Source: a virus
Taxonomy: Duplodnaviria > Caudoviricetes
Length of the DNA: 43,622 bases
Direction: 5' to 3' (one strand)
IMG/VR virus record: IMGVR_UViG_3300032129_000019
Span: 1-43,622 of that record
In this document: positions 1 to 43,622 of the stretch, one piece after another
Layout: each line of letters begins with the position of its first letter
How positions within the stretch are numbered: position 1 is the first letter of the stretch
The notes under the pieces: model-generated
Told to the model about the DNA's origin: nothing
The model's input: only the letters and a program-made list of their open reading frames with translations
Databases searched by the model: none
Made by a program: the position numbers and the translations under genes

Positions 1-85
1 TAGTACATCATATAAATCTTAATCATGCAGACAACAGGATTGAAAATCTACGAATAATGAGTAGGAGTGAACATGGAAAATTACA
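1..85 (+). repeat. Terminal overlap, identical to 43440-43524 (left flank of the insertion site)
   Basis: Exact match TAGTACATCA...GGAAAATTACA at both ends; consistent with a circular assembly. Confidence 0.95.
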
Positions 86-149
86 ATATTTGTGCGGAAA
101 GCCCACTCTCTTTAGGTGTGGGATGGATAGCACTACTAAAATATACCAT

Positions 150-178
150 TAGACATGGTTATTTTAGTACGATATAAT
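150..178 (+). promoter_or_regulatory. sigma70/SigA promoter inside the mini-element
   Basis: TAGACA(150-155)-17 bp-TATAAT(173-178); the -35 lies in the loop of inverted repeat TACTAAAATATACCA/TGGTTATTTTAGTA. Confidence 0.75.
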
Positions 179-184
179 ATACTT

Positions 185-365
185 AAGTTTTGAAACGAGC
201 CATATACTATCGTTAATGTGTCAATTGTGATGCTTGATAGTGAAATTCTTGAAGAAAATAATTAGTTTTTATATGTTGTAATTTATAGTTTTCATTATAA
301 ATGAGAGTATAAAAGAAGTTATTTAGTATTCAAGAACCCCATTCATTTATGTGTGGGAGTTTCAG
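185..365 (+). ncRNA. Putative TnpB-type omega-RNA scaffold, copy 1 (guide would be 366 onward)
   Basis: Several stems covary with the copy at 42136-42315; ends at the IS605-type right end; 5' TTGAAAC(190-196) pairs with 3' GTTTCAG(359-365). Confidence 0.65.
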
Positions 366-544
366 ATGGAGGATTTAAAGGTGGAAGTAAAGGCGTACAT
401 AGAATTTCAACAAGTTTTAGTGTAGACAATGAAATTGTTAAAAAATTCAATGAAGTATGCAAAATAGAATCAGTAAATAAAAGTGCATTAATTGAGAAAC
501 TGATAGTCGCTTATATTGAAACGGATAAAAAAGATAAAAAATAA
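366..544 (+). pseudogene. 3' part (ribbon-helix-helix domain) of the HNH-RHH gene, cut off by the insertion in this allele
   Basis: In-frame continuation of ORF 43340.. in the empty allele; RISTSFSVDNEIVKKFNEVCK...NKSALIEKLIVAYI has an RHH pattern; 366-464 equals 43524-43622. Confidence 0.75.
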
Positions 545-573
545 TACCTACTCAAAGTGCGGAGGGATATTAA

Positions 574-744
574 GTGAAAACCTATTGTAGTATTTTAGAA
601 TGTAAAATATGTGGAGAAAAAACAAATACTATATGGCATGAAAGCAAAGTATTATGGTTAATTGAAAAAGAGATATTAAAATATAAGCACCGAAAAAATA
701 GACATAACATGAATTTTATAAAAGCATTTTCTAGAAATAAATAA
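574..744 (+). CDS. Hypothetical protein, 56 aa, CxxC
   Basis: GGAGG RBS, GTG start; translated by hand. Confidence 0.55.
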   Translation: MKTYCSILECKICGEKTNTIWHESKVLWLIEKEILKYKHRKNRHNMNFIKAFSRNK

Positions 745-802
745 ATCATAAAACAGGTTGTTTGAAACGACCTGTTTAAATAAAAAATAGGGGGAATTAA
801 TA

Positions 803-982
803 ATGGTATTGAATGAATATAGTACAGAGGACATAGTGGAAGAATTAAAAAGAAGAAAGTTTAAATCAATTATGATAAATCCATACGATGCTTTCAGTTT
901 AGACATTATTCCACAACCAGGTAGTGTAGGAGATTTTATAAAAGGAGAGGGACCGGTAGTAATATTGATTATAGAAGATTAA
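803..982 (+). CDS. Small phage protein, BC1881-family-like (59 aa)
   Basis: RBS; STEDIVEELKRR...INPY...GPVVILIIED pattern. Confidence 0.55.
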   Translation: MVLNEYSTEDIVEELKRRKFKSIMINPYDAFSLDIIPQPGSVGDFIKGEGPVVILIIED

Positions 983-1011
983 AATAATTTTTAAAATAGG
1001 GGGAATTAATA

Positions 1012-1203
1012 ATGAATGATTGTTTTTGGTACAGTATAATGGCTTGTGATGGTGGTACTTGTAATTGTAAAAAGTATGTTTCAATGAACGGTAAAGCTGG
1101 GAGTGTTTCAAAATCAATATATCAAGATGAAATAGATGGTGCTATCAATCCGGTTAAAGAAAAATGGTTAAATAAATTCAAAGAATATGAGGGGGAAAAA
1201 TAA
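1012..1203 (+). CDS. Hypothetical Cys-rich protein
   Basis: ORF with RBS, coupled to the next gene. Confidence 0.6.
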   Translation: MNDCFWYSIMACDGGTCNCKKYVSMNGKAGSVSKSIYQDEIDGAINPVKEKWLNKFKEYEGEK

Positions 1204-1412
1204 TGAATTGTAAAAAATGTGGTAGTGAAAACATTCAAGTGGTGCAAGGTAACTCTAGTACGAGTGGCAAGGGCATCTTATGGGGAATAGGTAGATTTAT
1301 ATTAATATGTTGTACAGCAGGTTTGTGGCTATTAATAGGTAAGAGAAAAGGCAAGGTAAAAACAAAGACTAGGGCAGTATGTATGGGTTGCGGGGATAAG
1401 TGGGATATATAA
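1203..1412 (+). CDS. Small membrane protein with split zinc ribbon
   Basis: CKKCGS..., hydrophobic segment, CMGCG. Confidence 0.65.
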   Translation: MNCKKCGSENIQVVQGNSSTSGKGILWGIGRFILICCTAGLWLLIGKRKGKVKTKTRAVCMGCGDKWDI

Positions 1413-1441
1413 ATAATTTATAGAAGTAGGAGGGTATTAAA

Positions 1442-1621
1442 ATGTATAGACTTGATATGATTAAATTTATAGTAGAAGATAGAATTAAAAATGAAAACAT
1501 AAATAATACTGAAATTAAAATATCATTAGTACATGAATTATGCTCAATGGAATACACAGAGGTATTAAAGATATACGAATCAACAACACACAAGCTATAT
1601 AGCAACACACAGACGCTTTAA
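1442..1621 (+). CDS. Hypothetical protein (59 aa)
   Basis: GGAGGG RBS plus ATG; translated by hand. Confidence 0.5.
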   Translation: MYRLDMIKFIVEDRIKNENINNTEIKISLVHELCSMEYTEVLKIYESTTHKLYSNTQTL

Positions 1622-1652
1622 AATTAAATAGGTAGAATAGGGAGGGTATTAA

Positions 1653-1844
1653 ATGAATTATAGATACTATTTAACACAGAGAGGTCCAGGTCCATTTTGT
1701 CAGCCTAAGAAAACTATCAATATACATGATTACGGAATTAAAATATTTATAGTTGCAATAGGTTGTGGTGCCTGGGGATATGCGGAATATGATAGGAAAT
1801 TAACAGAGAAAGAAATTAGTGAGTATGAATTAATAGAGGGATAA
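1653..1844 (+). CDS. DarA C-terminal-like (defence against restriction) small protein
   Basis: YYLTQRGPGP...WGYAEYDRKLTEKEISEYEL pattern. Confidence 0.45.
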   Translation: MNYRYYLTQRGPGPFCQPKKTINIHDYGIKIFIVAIGCGAWGYAEYDRKLTEKEISEYELIEG

Positions 1845-1908
1845 GGAGAAAATTGATAATGTGTAATATGATTAAAGTACGCAACAAAAAAATAAGGAGG
1901 AAATTATT

Positions 1909-2217
1909 ATGTTTTTACCAAGTTTTAGTAAAGAAACAAGTGATACTATTTCAGATTCAATAGATTTAGCAGTAAAAGGTTTAGTCATGAAACCTAACGA
2001 TATTATAGCTTTGAAAGAAAAGGCTTTAAGTGATTGGTGTAGCAAAAATGGTTGTGTTTACTGGGGTGGAACTTATGGTTATGTAGAAAAAACGGAAAAT
2101 GATGATGGCACATGTTTATCTAAGCATGACACATTAGTAGAGATATTTAATGGTTATTGCAAAAATGGTGGAAGCGTTATAAATTTAATACCTAAAATCG
2201 AAGCTCTATATAATTAG
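1909..2217 (+). CDS. Hypothetical protein
   Basis: AAGGAGG RBS, 102-aa ORF. Confidence 0.7.
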   Translation: MFLPSFSKETSDTISDSIDLAVKGLVMKPNDIIALKEKALSDWCSKNGCVYWGGTYGYVEKTENDDGTCLSKHDTLVEIFNGYCKNGGSVINLIPKIEALYN

Positions 2218-2250
2218 TTACTTCGTACTTCAAAAACATGACGCAACTTA

Positions 2251-2290
2251 ATAAAAGCACTTATCTAAATTAATAGGTAAGTGCTTTTAT
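2251..2290. terminator. Bidirectional intrinsic terminator
   Basis: AAAAGCACTTATCTA...TAGGTAAGTGCTTTT between convergent units. Confidence 0.8.
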
Positions 2291-2499
2291 GTATTATCTA
2301 ACATAAACCTTTACATTGTCTATTTCTACATAAATAATATCTTTTATATCCTCTTTAGTTATTGCATCATTAGCCACTATTTGCATCCCCCTCATAAATT
2401 ACTATCTGATTATATTATAGCATTTATAAAGGGTAATAAAGGGTAATAAAGGTAAAGTTCACAAAGAAAATAACCCCAAAATTGTGAGGTTATTCGACA

Positions 2500-2928
2500 T
2501 TATTTTTTAATTGTATTGAAGTCTATTCCTAAATCTTGAAGTTCCTTTACAAGTTTAACCACATCTTTAAGTGGCATATCTGCTAGTTTGGAATCTTTAT
2601 CTACGGCTATTTTAACGTCGTGTTTTGTATTATTATCATCATATATAGAAGTTTGTAAAATCTTAGCGTTCTTAACGTCCGTAACTCCTAGAAGATAATC
2701 ATTTGTTACATCAAAGAAATTAGATATAAAAGTCAATATTCTTAAATCTGGAATACGAAAGTAACGCTCATAATTGCTTATTGATCCATATGTTATTTCA
2801 ATTTCATACTTTTGCTGCAAAGCTGCTGCAAGTTCTTTCAAAGTCAATTTTCTATCGGTACGTAACATCTTTAAACGGTTAGCAAAAACCTTTCTAAATT
2901 CTAAATCTTTTTCGTTGATATTTTCCAT
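2500..2928 (-). CDS. XRE-family HTH repressor (CI-like)
   Basis: RLKMLR..LTLKELA..SISNYER..RIPD..FFDVTNDYLLG; divergent from a cro-like gene. Confidence 0.85.
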   Translation of the reverse strand: MENINEKDLEFRKVFANRLKMLRTDRKLTLKELAAALQQKYEIEITYGSISNYERYFRIPDLRILTFISNFFDVTNDYLLGVTDVKNAKILQTSIYDDNNTKHDVKIAVDKDSKLADMPLKDVVKLVKELQDLGIDFNTIKK

Positions 2929-3055
2929 TTTTCATATACCCCCACGACACATTTATAAATTATTCTACTATTAGTATAACCAAATGTTAAACTTTTGATA
3001 CAGTTTTTTATTGTTTTAATGAATAATTAACGACATGTTCTTATAACGAGAACAA

Positions 3056-3121
3056 CAATTCAACGTTACGAAAAATATATTTATAAAAAGGGTTGCAATT
3101 CAACGTAAGGTAGAATATAAT
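3056..3121 (+). promoter_or_regulatory. Early promoter with repeated operator-like CAATTCAACGT
   Basis: TTGCAA(3093-3098)-17-TATAAT(3116-3121); CAATTCAACGT at 3056 and 3096. Confidence 0.65.
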
Positions 3122-3166
3122 ATAATTATACCGAATAAGATAAAACATACCAATTAATCCAGGGAG

Positions 3167-3358
3167 GTGCAAAACATGAAAAGAGAGGAATTAAGAATGG
3201 CAAGATTAGGAAAATATTTATCACAATCAGAAACTGCAACTTACATAGGAGTTAAACAAAGCTTCTATTCAAAACTAGAAAACGGAAACGCAAATCCAAG
3301 TCTTGAGCAAAGCAAACTTTTAATAAAACTTTTAAAAATCAATTTAAAAATGTTATAG
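3167..3358 (+). CDS. Cro-like XRE HTH regulator
   Basis: LSQSETA..IGVKQSFYSKLENGNANPS. Confidence 0.85.
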   Translation: MQNMKREELRMARLGKYLSQSETATYIGVKQSFYSKLENGNANPSLEQSKLLIKLLKINLKML

Positions 3359-3363
3359 GAGGG

Positions 3364-17912: not shown

Positions 17913-19508
17913 ATGTCACTAAATAGTAAACTCTCCGCTACAGATATAGCAATAGAAAAAATGAGTAAAAACACACAGAAAGAAATTATAAAAGAGTTTT
18001 CTAGGGCATTGAATGAAACTAGAAGCAGTTTAGCAATGTATTACGAAAAGTATTCAAAAGATGGCACTTTAACATATAGCGGAATGGCTAAATATAACCG
18101 TTTAAAGGCGCTTAATGACGAGGTTAGTAATAAACTAGCGAGTGTATATAAGGCTAATGGGAAGGATACAAAAGAGTTGTTAAAGAGTGTTTATAATGAA
18201 AGTTATTTAGGTACGAGTTATGCAATAGAATCAGAAACAAGTGTTAATTCTAAGTTTGTAATGGTTAATATGGGCACTATAAACTCAGCTATTGAAAATC
18301 CAATAAGTGGGTTAACACTATCCGAGAGGTTAGAGAAACACAGAAGCGATATTATTATTAATGTTAAAAGTGAAATAACACAGGGTTTAATTAGAGGTGA
18401 GGGTTATGGTAAGATAGCCAAAAGAATCAAAGGTAGATTTGATGGTGATGCAAGTAAAGCTATTAGAGTGGCACAAACAGAAACACATAGAATATTAAAT
18501 CAATCTCGGTTAGATGCTGGAATTAGGGCAGATGAATTAGGCATTAACATGTTGAAAGTATGGGATGCCACATTAGATGCTAAAACAAGAAACTCCCATC
18601 AATCACTAGATGGTGTAAAAATAGGAGTAAAAGAAAACTTTACTTCTTCTATAGGTGGTTATGGATTAGCGCCGGGTAGTCTAGGACTTGCAGCAGATGA
18701 TATTAATTGTAGGTGTGCAATTCGTTACGAGGTGGATGGTTTAAGTCCTAAGTTAAGGGCCACAAGGGATGCACAAGGCAAAACTGTATTAGTTCCCAAT
18801 ACAACATATGCAGAATGGAAATCTTTAAAAGGTGTTACTAACAAAGAAAACACAATTAACAAAATGAGTGATTTAACAGAAACAGAAACCGAAGCAATAA
18901 AAGGATATAAAAACTTTGGTAATGCGATTAATCAGTCTATAAGAAAAAGAGCGGGATTTAATGTAGATGAATCCGCCGCGGTTTATGTTCCTAGATTAGA
19001 AAATATTTTAAAGAAAACAGAATTAGCAAAGGAAACACAAGTTTATAGGGGTATGTCATCAAAAGCACTAGGGCAATATAGCAATATAGTAAAACAAGAT
19101 CCAACTCGTTTAATAGGTGCTGAAATATCAGACAAAGCATTCATGAGTACAAGTAAAAATATAGACGTTGCTTCACATAATTTTATGGAAAATGGCAAAA
19201 GACTAAGGGGCGATGATGTACTCTTAGAAATCAAAGTACCTAAAGGCTACCATGGATTAGAATTAGGGGAATACTCATTAAACAATGAAGATGAAATTCT
19301 TTTAATAAATAATTCAAGAATAAGAATAACTAGCGTTGAAGATACTCGCAAAGTAGCTACTGATAAAATGAAACAAGTAGATGATTTAACTAAACCAATA
19401 GGAGAGGAATCGATATTTGGTCAAGACTACGAACAAAAATTAGTACCAACAGGCGAGAAACAAATGAAGGGTTATATTAAGTTAATAGGGGAGGTTTTTT
19501 ATGAGTAA
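17913..19508 (+). CDS. MuF minor head protein fused to a C-terminal VIP2-like ADP-ribosyltransferase
   Basis: MuF: KVWDATLD.KTR.SH..DING-like DDINCRC; ART: VYRG, FMSTS, EDE (R-S-E triad). Confidence 0.85.
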   Translation: MSLNSKLSATDIAIEKMSKNTQKEIIKEFSRALNETRSSLAMYYEKYSKDGTLTYSGMAKYNRLKALNDEVSNKLASVYKANGKDTKELLKSVYNESYLGTSYAIESETSVNSKFVMVNMGTINSAIENPISGLTLSERLEKHRSDIIINVKSEITQGLIRGEGYGKIAKRIKGRFDGDASKAIRVAQTETHRILNQSRLDAGIRADELGINMLKVWDATLDAKTRNSHQSLDGVKIGVKENFTSSIGGYGLAPGSLGLAADDINCRCAIRYEVDGLSPKLRATRDAQGKTVLVPNTTYAEWKSLKGVTNKENTINKMSDLTETETEAIKGYKNFGNAINQSIRKRAGFNVDESAAVYVPRLENILKKTELAKETQVYRGMSSKALGQYSNIVKQDPTRLIGAEISDKAFMSTSKNIDVASHNFMENGKRLRGDDVLLEIKVPKGYHGLELGEYSLNNEDEILLINNSRIRITSVEDTRKVATDKMKQVDDLTKPIGEESIFGQDYEQKLVPTGEKQMKGYIKLIGEVFYE

Positions 19509-34228: not shown

Positions 34229-34409
34229 GATCATTATTCAGTAAAAATGGGTACAAACGTTGGCGATATGGTAATTGTTTAACGCACTGTGAATATCACT
34301 ATTTGCAGTGCCTCAAATTCAACTCCATTAAAGGATAAAAAACTCAAATAATTTAACATCATTAGTAATATGTGGTACAATTATATTGATTAATTTTAGG
34401 GGGTATTCT

Positions 34410-35550
34410 ATGCTATATATTATTATTTTCATAAGTATGTCACTTGTGTGTTTTTACAGTTTTTTAAGCATCAAGAATAACACATTTATATTCATCATTT
34501 TCGGTATTGGACTTACTTTATTAAGTATGTTTAGATTCGGTTTTGGTATGGATTATTTCAGCTATTTAGTTCATTATACTCTTAACCCAAGCACAATCAA
34601 AGATGCAATTAGCAATCAATCACATGTAGATGTAGGATTTAGAATAATAATGGGTGTTTTTAAATATTTTAAATTAAATTACGAGGTATTTATCGCTGGA
34701 ATTAGTTTAATGATTATGTTTATGTACTTAAGAGTTATAAATAAAAATTCTAAATTTAAAATAATGTCTTTGTTAATTTTCTTTTCAGTTTATTATTCGA
34801 TTTATGTAAACAGTGCATTAAGACAAGGTATTGCAATAGTTATATTTTTTTACAGCTTATTACAAATACCTAAAAGAGGGACAAACACTTAAATATGTAA
34901 TTCTAATATTAATAGCTATGACTTTTCATAGTTCAGCAGTGGTGACATTGATAATCCCATTTATTAAGTTAGTTTATAAAAAAGCATTCAATAATAAGGT
35001 ATTCAATTTTTTATTATTGATGTTGTCATTACTGATATGTTTTTCAAATGCTAGCCAATTAATTCTTAAAATTGGTAGATTTTTAGGAATGTCTACATTA
35101 TATGAAGCATCATCATACAACCCATTCGCCATAGCATTAAGGATTATTTCACTCGCATTGATTTATACATTATATAAAAGTATTCCAAGCAAAGATGTTA
35201 GTGAATTTGATAAGTTCCAGATATACACCTATTTTATTGGTAGTGTCATATTCATATCGGCTTCTAATGTTCAAATTTTATCTAGAATATTAGAGTATTT
35301 TACTATTTTAGAAATAATCTTAATGCCAAATCTTGTTAGAAACATGAAATTCAACTTAAATAAATTCGCCGGATTATCTTTTATTATAGTACTGGTTGGG
35401 TTAATATTTATTAAAGATATGTCATTTTTTGTTGATAGAGGTCAATATTACAACAAAAGCATATTGGGGTACAAATACGTTTCAATATTTAATAAATACG
35501 AACTTTATGATTATAGATTTGTAGATGTGTATACTCTTGATACAGAATAA
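34410..35550 (+). pseudogene. EpsG/Wzy-like polysaccharide polymerase, split by a frameshift in a T7 run
   Basis: FR..FG.DY..Y, LRQGIA, FHSSA motifs; removing one T at 34845-34851 fuses the two ORFs. Confidence 0.8.
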
Positions 35551-41681: not shown

Positions 41682-42089
41682 ATGAATTTTATATTAATAG
41701 AGGAATTTTTAAAACAAAACAAAGAGGTGCAAGAGGTTTTTATGGAATGGTGGAAACCTCAAATAGGGGATTTAGTTTATGACAGAATTAGTATTGTAGG
41801 TGTTGTTGTGCCAGTGTTATGTATGGGTCAATATAGGACTAACTTAGATAAAACAAAGGTGACTCCGTTATTACAAATAAACCAACTTATTAGGTTTATT
41901 GAGGACAAAACAGAATGCAAAATTGAAATAGACTATTACACAGAAGAGGTTTCAATATATTTGAATTCGCTTGATAATGATGGAATATCACATTATAAAT
42001 ATTCGCCTTTTGAAAATTTTGGATTAGATTTATTAAAAGCTTTATGGAAAATAGCTTGTATTATAGCATTAGAGCAACACAAACATTAA
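41682..42089 (+). CDS. Hypothetical phage protein
   Basis: RBS; WWKPQIGDL..PLL..QLIRFIEDK. Confidence 0.7.
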   Translation: MNFILIEEFLKQNKEVQEVFMEWWKPQIGDLVYDRISIVGVVVPVLCMGQYRTNLDKTKVTPLLQINQLIRFIEDKTECKIEIDYYTEEVSIYLNSLDNDGISHYKYSPFENFGLDLLKALWKIACIIALEQHKH

Positions 42090-42135
42090 ACAATACAATT
42101 ACAAAATATCAAGCATGGGAATATAAAAAAATAAT

Positions 42136-42315
42136 AAGGTTTTGATATGAGCCTTTAAACTATCGTTAATTTATCCATTGGGATAATTGGTAGTAAAAGT
42201 CTTAGAGAAGTTATTTAGTTCTTATATGTTGTAATTTATAGTTTTTATATAAATGAGAGTATAGGAGAAGATAATGTATTTAAGAACCCCATGCCTTTAG
42301 GCGTGGGAGTATCGG
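42136..42315 (+). ncRNA. Putative omega-RNA scaffold, copy 2 / IS605-type right end without a left end
   Basis: About 80% identical by eye to 185-365 with compensatory changes; GAAC-CCCATGCC-TTTA-GGCGTGGG-AGTA-TCGG. Confidence 0.7.
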
Positions 42316-42416
42316 ATTACCCTCATACTGAAAGTTTGTTAGGGGTTGTGTGGGGTGTTTAAAATAGGATGTATGTCGTGGTTTGATTACATGATGAAGT
42401 AAAAGGAGGTAAACGA

Positions 42417-42911: not shown

Positions 42912-42948
42912 AAAAAGCAACTATACCTACATAATATAGTTGCTTTTT
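42912..42948. terminator. Bidirectional terminator
   Basis: AAAAAGCAACTATA...TATAGTTGCTTTTT. Confidence 0.8.
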
Positions 42949-43185
42949 AATATAGGTGGTCGGTCTGTCCACATTTCCTAACACATTTCTGTGTGGTGAT
43001 AGCTACCTGTTCTATCCTCTATATTAGTATAGTTGTTTTCTACATAAATTATAACTCTCTACCATGATACTTATATTATAGCATATATTAAGGTACATTT
43101 ATCCTTAAATTTGGAAATTTATTTTTTAAATAGGGTTGATTATGATATCAATTATGTGTTATAATATAAGTAAGGAGGTGATGAC

Positions 43186-43350
43186 ATGGCAGAGTTTTTA
43201 TTAAGAGGTATGTCTGATGCAAGTAAATACGATTTAAAAATAATAGCCAAGAAGCATAAACGGTCTTTAAATAGTGAAATACTTATGGTATTAGAAAAAT
43301 ATTTAGAATCAACGTTGAAAGAAAATAAGGAGGTTGTAAATGAGGGATAA
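43186..43350 (+). CDS. Arc-like ribbon-helix-helix repressor (54 aa)
   Basis: FLLRGM..AKKHKRSLNSEI; promoter TTGATT-18-TATAAT containing palindrome TGATATCA. Confidence 0.75.
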   Translation: MAEFLLRGMSDASKYDLKIIAKKHKRSLNSEILMVLEKYLESTLKENKEVVNEG

Positions 43351-43622
43351 ACATTGTGCTTTTAGTAACAGTTCTTATATTTCTTATTATAGATATTTAA
43401 TGGAAGATAAAATTGGCAGAAAGTTAGGCATTGACGAAGTAGTACATCATATAAATCTTAATCATGCAGACAACAGGATTGAAAATCTACGAATAATGAG
43501 TAGGAGTGAACATGGAAAATTACATGGAGGATTTAAAGGTGGAAGTAAAGGCGTACATAGAATTTCAACAAGTTTTAGTGTAGACAATGAAATTGTTAAA
43601 AAATTCAATGAAGTATGCAAAA
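43340..43622 (+). CDS. HNH endonuclease-RHH fusion, intact allele (continues into 465-544 on the circle)
   Basis: AAGGAGG RBS; YRYLMEDKIGRKL..EVVHHINLNHADNRIENL..SEHGKLH. Confidence 0.8.
   Translation, partial: MRDKHCAFSNSSYISYYRYLMEDKIGRKLGIDEVVHHINLNHADNRIENLRIMSRSEHGKLHGGFKGGSKGVHRISTSFSVDNEIVKKFNEVCK

Follow-up and report, generated by a model that had tools for sequence, protein, structure and literature searches.

A protein-free ISCbt1-like mini-element, present as filled and empty alleles in a phage population, carries a predicted TnpB guide RNA

A 281-bp element without protein genes occupies a site in some copies of a Clostridium-type phage genome and is missing from the same site in others. 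It is very probably a palindrome-associated transposable element (PATE) of the ISCbt1 type, polymorphic in the phage, likely moved in trans by a host TnpA, and carrying a predicted stand-alone TnpB guide RNA with a promoter of its own. The window, meaning the whole stretch of DNA that we analysed, is one phage contig of 43,622 bp with overlapping ends and 281 extra bases at its start. Positions 1–84 joined to 366–464 repeat 43440–43622 letter for letter, leaving 85–365 as the extra piece. The initial annotation had described a precise 281-bp indel without target duplication, and the exact match bears this out: there is no duplication beyond one ambiguous A, which allows the element to be written as 85–365 or 86–366. 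The element and its ends are laid out as follows:

81–84, plus strand: TTAC, the target and left cleavage tetranucleotide, outside the element; predicted core of the TnpB TAM (TTAC precedes 29/29 left ends caught).
85–365, plus strand: PATE, a protein-free IS200/IS605 mini-element of 281 bp (exact indel; 97–99% copies of 281–283 bp at other C. tagluense TTAC sites).
85–122, plus strand: left end, with a 13-nt linker (85–97), the DNA guide AAAG (98–101) and an imperfect hairpin (102–122), from a DNA fold.
334–365, plus strand: right end, with the DNA guide GAAC (334–337), a hairpin (338–357) and the cleavage site TCAG (362–365).

The hairpins at 102–122 and 338–357 are near-terminal palindromes, as in PATEs, and none of the 25 longest inverted repeats listed for the window joins the two element ends. 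AAAG before the left hairpin with TTAC, and GAAC before the right hairpin with TCAG, had both been read from the ends, and both recur across the family. AAAG with TTAC 12–15 nt upstream is found in all 29 left ends caught by our pattern, against a background of 4.9%; these ends come from the fetched loci minus HNH loci and chance matches, two of them (L126 and L127) share one site, and the pattern replaced an earlier one catching only 14 ends. Related loci likewise fix the element end at TCAG, with GAAC/TCAG in 47 of 50 distinct right ends, the search pattern having constrained most of the guide but not the end sequence. We take GAAC/TCAG to be a compensated pair, in the register guide 1–site 2, 2–1 and 4–4. 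Upstream of TTAC, the bases are AT-rich only.

The pairs cited for comparison from IS608 of Helicobacter pylori, AAAG with TTAC and GAAT with TCAA, agree with the available parts of PMC3201880 and PMC3597680. The left guide, the target and the hairpin ends are common to both elements, and the donor joint of IS608 is scarless. The phage element differs in having GAAC/TCAG instead of GAAT/TCAA and no genes. The IS608-type layout needs one correction, in the left linker, which measures 13 nt here (12–15 in the family) and not the 15 nt implied for IS608, whose TTAC lies 19 nt from the hairpin foot (PMC3201880, in the part available).

Neither the element nor the phage had been thought to carry tnpA or tnpB. 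Consistent with this, six-frame translation of the element gave no transposase gene, tblastn of the window with two TnpA and two TnpB proteins gave no match at E 0.5, and tnpA/tnpB-type Pfam families matched none of the 55 phage ORFs scanned (chosen from 114 listed). The element is a non-autonomous IS200/IS605 derivative, a PATE, as judged by its palindromes, lack of duplication, TTAC target, guides, shared ends and dispersed copies. Two other classes were considered. A classical MITE is ruled out, the element having neither terminal inverted repeats nor a target duplication. An IStron is ruled out as well: there is no Rfam intron match in the window, and the ends, the promoter match and the scaffold described below account for all 281 bp.

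Relatives of the element are dispersed in Clostridium. A match was found in 22 of 30 genus-level genomes, and the genome of C. tagluense A121 (G001) holds 24, of which three are full copies. Copies of 98–99% identity also occur on five C. tagluense plasmids. All of these plasmid (five) and chromosomal (three) copies are 281–283 bp long, follow TTAC, end in TCAG and have different flanks; copies other than that of the phage lie at unrelated, mostly intergenic sites. The closest sister copy, L193 (G014:C124:26658-26902), is 245 bp long, has the same variant letters as the phage element and has lost the promoter match through a 36-bp deletion. Three further loci vary the plan. In L200 (a viral contig, ~850–1150, minus strand) a left end, a promoter-like site and the first tnpA codons are fused to a scaffold; this mini-element is independently derived and has the pseudoknot pair in its C-G form. 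L122:1625-1672 is a single-hairpin element of ~48 bp after TTAC, its left linker fused to a right end via the shared hairpin, and resembles the terminal-only PATEs of Haloquadratum (PMC3119063, in the part available). In one plasmid copy, the last six right-end bases are repeated immediately in the flank (L001:1773-1784).

Which element could supply the transposase? The autonomous element L114 (G001:C20) is 2,183 bp long, lies after TTAC and has the same 13-nt left linker as the phage element, whose first 48 nt are 96% identical to its left end. It encodes a 133-aa Y1 TnpA (NF033573, 140 bits; cut-off 55) and a TnpB-like protein of ~490 aa, which has D, E and D RuvC motifs, no Pfam match and a score of 83 bits with NF040570, below the cut-off of 100. 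Compared with ISCbt1 of Clostridium phage c-st, a label taken from the GenBank record of this phage, the TnpA is 80% identical to OrfA and the TnpB-like protein 67% identical to OrfB. The RuvC-I aspartate and RuvC-III QRD occur in 8/8 of the TnpBs examined, the RuvC-II glutamate pattern in 6/8 and a CxxC motif in 0/8. ISCbt1 and L114 share the TTAC target, the AAAG and GAAC guides, the TCAG end and a homologous post-tnpB scaffold with the phage element; in the latter, by contrast, tnpA and tnpB are gone and a promoter match, not the tnpB stop codon, precedes the scaffold. Because a contig of the sequencing run X5 (depth 3.4) joins this left end to sequence like the tnpA leader of L114, a helper-type element is present in that sample. 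Among 30 genus-level and 285 scored family-level genomes (16 of 301 unscored, two candidates scored per genome), the scaffolds of autonomous elements reached at most 86–89% identity (G030, L155). The expected relatives in Clostridia were thus recovered, namely the parent-type L114 and copies at other TTAC sites, and mobilisation in trans by a host TnpA, as originally proposed, is well supported by tnpA- and tnpB-bearing relatives with matching ends.

Between its ends the element holds what looks like a guide RNA gene, which the earlier interpretation, otherwise supported, had missed along with the HNH target and a second remnant. The predicted parts are:

150–178, plus strand: predicted sigma-70/sigma-A type promoter match, TAGACA-17-TATAAT (11/12), ending 8 nt before the scaffold start.
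186–365, plus strand: predicted TnpB omegaRNA scaffold of ~180 nt, stems plus a pseudoknot of loop 191–196 with 359–364 (fold z, covariation and homology after tnpB).
366–381, plus strand: predicted RNA guide, drawn from the right flank and taken to be 16 nt long as in ISDra2; equal to the sequence after TTAC in the empty allele.

Five sites were found in 60–620, against 3.2 of any score in shuffles, and the promoter match scores best among them. At the same place, 14 of 17 mini-elements have a match of 10/12 or better, versus 1 of 30 other scaffold-bearing loci, and this lone locus is a truncated mini-element. Most of the 14 are near-identical (97–99%); a mini-element in G025 that is 78% identical keeps a 10/12 match at the same 8-nt distance. 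Since the sister copy L193 has no promoter match, the promoter is dispensable for spread.

The scaffold region (~176–365) matches the stretch just after tnpB, with 74% identity to ISCbt1 and 81% to L114, and the fold of 185–381 has a z of -3.16. RNAalifold, run on 24 related sequences (23 of 32 collected, near-duplicates dropped, plus L007), returned 40 pairs, 19 with double changes. Adding the pseudoknot gives 44 pairs, with 97.4% of cells paired and double changes in 20/44 pairs. None of 500 shuffles reached this level of pairing and slid controls gave 37–45%; these controls are lenient, the structure being derived from the same alignment and the relatives sharing a history that can beat shuffles. 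The variable pseudoknot pair is UA in 12 sequences, AU in 11 and CG in one, and paired in 24/24; three pair types at one long-range position are good evidence for the predicted pseudoknot. In the phage copy, an A-C mismatch takes the place of the first pair of stem 1. Rfam gave no match on the element, its one match in the window being a skipping-rope RNA elsewhere. In ISDra2, the 3' end of the omegaRNA scaffold also pairs with a 5' segment as a pseudoknot and the guide is 16 nt (PMC10097598, in the part available). With the TAM of this TnpB clade inferred from TTAC, the sole TTAC-adjacent seed match of the guide in the window is the empty site, 16/16. The cassette probably yields a stand-alone omegaRNA.

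The filled and empty alleles can be followed in public sequencing runs. Twenty of 23 listed runs hold at least half of the words of window 1–2500; their labels read brine, marine or seawater metagenome, apart from one coded organism, and eight are flagged as possible window sources. We examined seven as contigs (X1, X5, X6, X9, X10, X12 and X19), of which X1, X5 and X6 are possible sources; X5 and X6 come from one study, and X9 and X10 from one sample. The empty form is represented in the window itself:

43520–43539, plus strand: empty allele, TTAC then directly the predicted target (bridged by contigs of X9 and X10).

In X1, a filled contig (56–395) holds 29 nt of left flank, the element and 30 nt of right flank in one piece at depth 17.2, versus 12.9 for the empty joint. 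In X5, both filled junctions are present (body 1512.6, right junction 825.9) versus 1213.8 for the empty joint. X6 branches on both sides of the site, with the empty junction at 2177.6 versus flanks at 2915.8 and 3673.4. Rough filled shares, from mean word depths of poor additivity, are 57% (X1), 40–55% (X5) and 25–41% (X6). A separate IMG/VR contig (L009) has the filled allele and equals window 80–3122 (3043/3043 nt), with only 5 nt of left flank; the empty allele was found in runs released 2011 to 2024. Both alleles coexist in the phage population, as had been suggested from the window alone, supported by the filled and empty paths in X1 and X5 and the branches in X6. X9 holds the element at depth 45.5 with another left flank, and contigs of X10 and X12 contain no filled path, contigs showing presence rather than absence and the X12 contig passing the junction by only 8 nt. 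A difference in allele ratio among samples is only a hint. The junction check that the initial annotation had proposed returned both alleles (X1, X5) and no circle: an RE-LE junction is not listed in the contigs of X1, X5, X9 or X19, contigs dropping rare forms. X19, an RNA run by guess, covers only 366–564 at depth 3.2 and carries no weight as transcription evidence. In X9 a TTAC site at 41851–41876 is joined to the left end of the element at a branch depth of 8.5, with no matching right junction among those listed; we discounted this joint as a second insertion, a 7-nt shared stretch allowing a chimera or deletion.

The insertion interrupts a nuclease gene:

43340–43622, continuing at 465–544, plus strand: HNH endonuclease gene with a C-terminal ribbon-helix-helix-like part (HNH_3 E 4e-9; RHH_3 E 8e-4, below the Pfam cut-off).

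The insertion point falls in His62 of the protein, which by our reading of the motif would be the last histidine of the HNH-type motif. The reading frame is truncated by the insertion: conceptual translation gives 120 aa in the empty and 83 aa in the filled allele. Among 80 retained (of 112) HNH-related loci in viral contigs, only L034, on the contig of L009, is this phage. An in-frame GTG in the right end of the element could start a 63-aa RHH-like fragment of the broken gene (353–544).

A second trace of this family lies near the other end of the window:

42103–42315, plus strand: second remnant of 213 bp, after TTAC (42099–42102), with the last tnpB codons, an omegaRNA-type scaffold and a right end TCGG.

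Window 42096–42317 and the 3' end of L114 share 96% identity. The remnant folds with a z of -4.08 and keeps the pseudoknot by a U-G pair; it has neither a left hairpin nor a promoter match. It is an insert, because a related prophage fragment (G015:C159, 85% identical to window 2254–3362) has the empty site at ~741–745, with TTAC joined to the sequence at 42316. No alternative path at the remnant is listed in the contigs of X6, X9, X10 and X12. Nowhere in the window does a seed match to its guide lie next to TTAC. Two exact matches of that guide in viral contigs were set aside as chance, both lying in unrelated DNA. The break of the remnant follows TAAG in 3/4 parent-type sequences. In two genomes, three identical 39-bp inserts after TTAC consist of a right end only (L116:1722-1760, L119:2766-2804 and L171:422-460) and begin just after an internal TTAG of the mini-element; the 39-bp scar had 0 matches in the metagenome contigs. 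Both TAAG and TTAG resemble TCAG, and these two breakpoints suggest mis-cutting by TnpA guided by GAAC. The 39-bp inserts possibly reflect a cryptic TnpA cut or a mobile 39-mer, and the remnant may also have arisen by plain deletion, which a 2-nt shared stretch allows. The words 'cryptic' and 'imprecise' are absent from 10.1101/2022.10.12.511977.

How would such an element move, and what might its RNA do? The TnpA of a host element would insert the mini-element on single-stranded phage DNA 3' of TTAC and, by analogy with IS608, could excise it scarlessly and restore the empty allele; we consider these two steps together very likely. More tentatively, the RNA may load a TnpB of the host and direct it to empty alleles, to be cut at TTAC plus 366–381, and recombination after cutting would restore or spread the element. 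Any guiding by a host TnpB has, in our estimate, slightly less than an even chance. Retention by cutting of the donor joint is a published model, and the paper that gives it remarks that PATEs frequently carry omegaRNA genes whose products are used in trans (10.1101/2023.03.14.532601, in the part available), and homing against co-infecting phages or plasmids is given as a mode in the accessible text of a review (PMC13565253). Homing from one phage genome to another, driven by TnpB, is plausible. That the allele ratio is shaped by a drive is unlikely, and a strong drive is disfavoured because the empty allele persists. In its fullest form, which we also regard as unlikely, the cassette would be a protein-free gene drive: the guide and a host TnpB would copy it into empty phages in mixed infections, knocking out the HNH gene, and host TnpA would regenerate empty alleles and so keep both forms. 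TnpA mis-cutting at cryptic TNAG sites would then leave guide genes that can no longer move, of which the 213-bp remnant and the 39-bp scars would be examples, as a route to domesticated guides.

Alternatively, the PATE is mobilised by TnpA and its RNA part is a passive leftover, the two alleles being two phage lineages separated by one insertion whose ratio follows drift or mixing. This departs from our preferred explanation only at the guide step, and we judge it evenly poised between true and false. Identical flanks and the lack of a listed circle junction fit it, as do the persistence of the empty allele from 2011 to 2024, the promoter-less sister copy and the failure to find a close cognate TnpB in the genomes searched; moreover, promoter-bearing copies are mostly 97–99% alike, so that their conservation shows little selection. 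A passive RNA is, however, harder to reconcile with the retained promoter spacing in the 78% mini-element of G025, with a scaffold that is whole and 97% paired across the family, and with stand-alone omegaRNAs shown to work in trans (summarised in PMC10691335, in the part available).

The two remaining explanations do without a mobile element in the phage or give it a phage function. An assembly chimera, in which the phage contig had picked up a copy of the element from the host, would fit the position of the two alleles at opposite ends of a single contig, an arrangement expected of a collapsed bubble, and the X9 element contig with a different left flank (41851–41874) may itself be chimeric. 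Yet X1 spans both flanks and the element in a single contig, both X5 junctions exceed a depth of 800 versus 3.4–3.6 for the contigs with other flanks, L009 matches the filled allele separately, and the junction obeys the family TTAC/TCAG rule exactly; this explanation is largely refuted and its probability close to negligible. We find it quite improbable, if less so, that the phage has domesticated the cassette, either to switch its HNH gene on and off or to aim a guide at the DNA of the host or of rivals. In favour, the gene would be recovered by scarless excision, the GTG could provide the RHH-like fragment in the filled state, and both alleles are common in X1 and X5. Against this, other copies sit at unrelated, mostly intergenic sites, and TTAC occurs 470 times in the phage genome, so that hitting the HNH gene needs no design. 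Moreover, the guide matches the empty allele only, and that of the 213-bp remnant has no TTAC-adjacent match in the window and only the two exact viral matches in unrelated DNA.

Returning to the interpretation of the element as a PATE with a predicted guide RNA, several of its aspects are already published: PATEs with omegaRNAs, stand-alone omegaRNAs acting in trans, and a virus-borne PATE. PATEs are known from Haloquadratum (PMC3119063) and, as PATE-like ISGst elements, from Geobacillus (10.1101/2023.03.14.532601). As the available parts of these papers describe them, PATEs have near-terminal palindromes, no terminal inverted repeats and no target duplication, are too short for a transposase, form homogeneous multi-copy families (PMC3119063) and often carry omegaRNAs needing TnpB in trans (10.1101/2023.03.14.532601), all features that the phage element has or is predicted to have. 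It differs from them in being clostridial and ISCbt1-like, in having both alleles in one phage population and in its promoter match directly before the scaffold. The stand-alone omegaRNAs of OMEGA systems are mobilised guide-RNA genes without effector or transposase that work in trans, with a role stated as unknown in the accessible part of PMC10691335; the RNA of the phage element, by contrast, is predicted to target the empty allele carried by phage genomes that coexist with the filled form. The archaeal virus HRTV-DL1 likewise bears a protein-free IS605 derivative, a PATE of 489 bp common to virus and host with one end strongly transcribed, and the available text of that report describes no allele polymorphism or guide role (PMC10544981).

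A search of the openly accessible literature found no report on mini-elements of the ISCbt1-like family, on TnpB of ISCbt1, or on a phage population in which a PATE site is filled in some genomes and empty in others. ISfinder-wide TnpB screens may cover ISCbt1. The whole cassette and its exact empty allele in the same phage population form a natural test case. Cultured C. tagluense strains such as CM008, CM022 and A121 have copies of 97–99% identity, and candidate TnpA/TnpB helpers are also to hand. The locus thereby makes homing in trans between co-infecting phages directly testable. For a clade of zinc-finger-less TnpBs of ~490 aa, on which the literature searched held no characterisation, it also provides a scaffold supported by covariation and a TAM that is likely of the TTAC type.

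The phage itself has further features. Pfam matches among the 55 ORFs include a terminase, an SPP1-type portal, capsid and tail proteins, an amidase, DnaB, ThyX and a repressor-like HTH protein. The repressor-like HTH gene lies at 2500–2928 (minus strand), yet no integrase, transposase or TnpB was matched among the ORFs scanned. The product of 17913–19508 resembles a MuF-toxin fusion, a Mu gpF-like head protein with an ADP-ribosyltransferase domain (PF03496, E 6e-15) at its C-terminus. Next to the tail and lysis region, two adjoining ORFs at 34386–35550 match the N- and C-terminal parts of EpsG (PF14897), as if a polysaccharide-polymerase-like gene were split in two. The HNH gene is preceded by a small gene, and upstream of the latter, at 42948–43026 on the minus strand, lies the skipping-rope RNA (RF02924, 56.2 bits). 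Finally, the phage has a DarA_C-like gene (1653–1844) and, besides ThyX, two methyltransferase genes.
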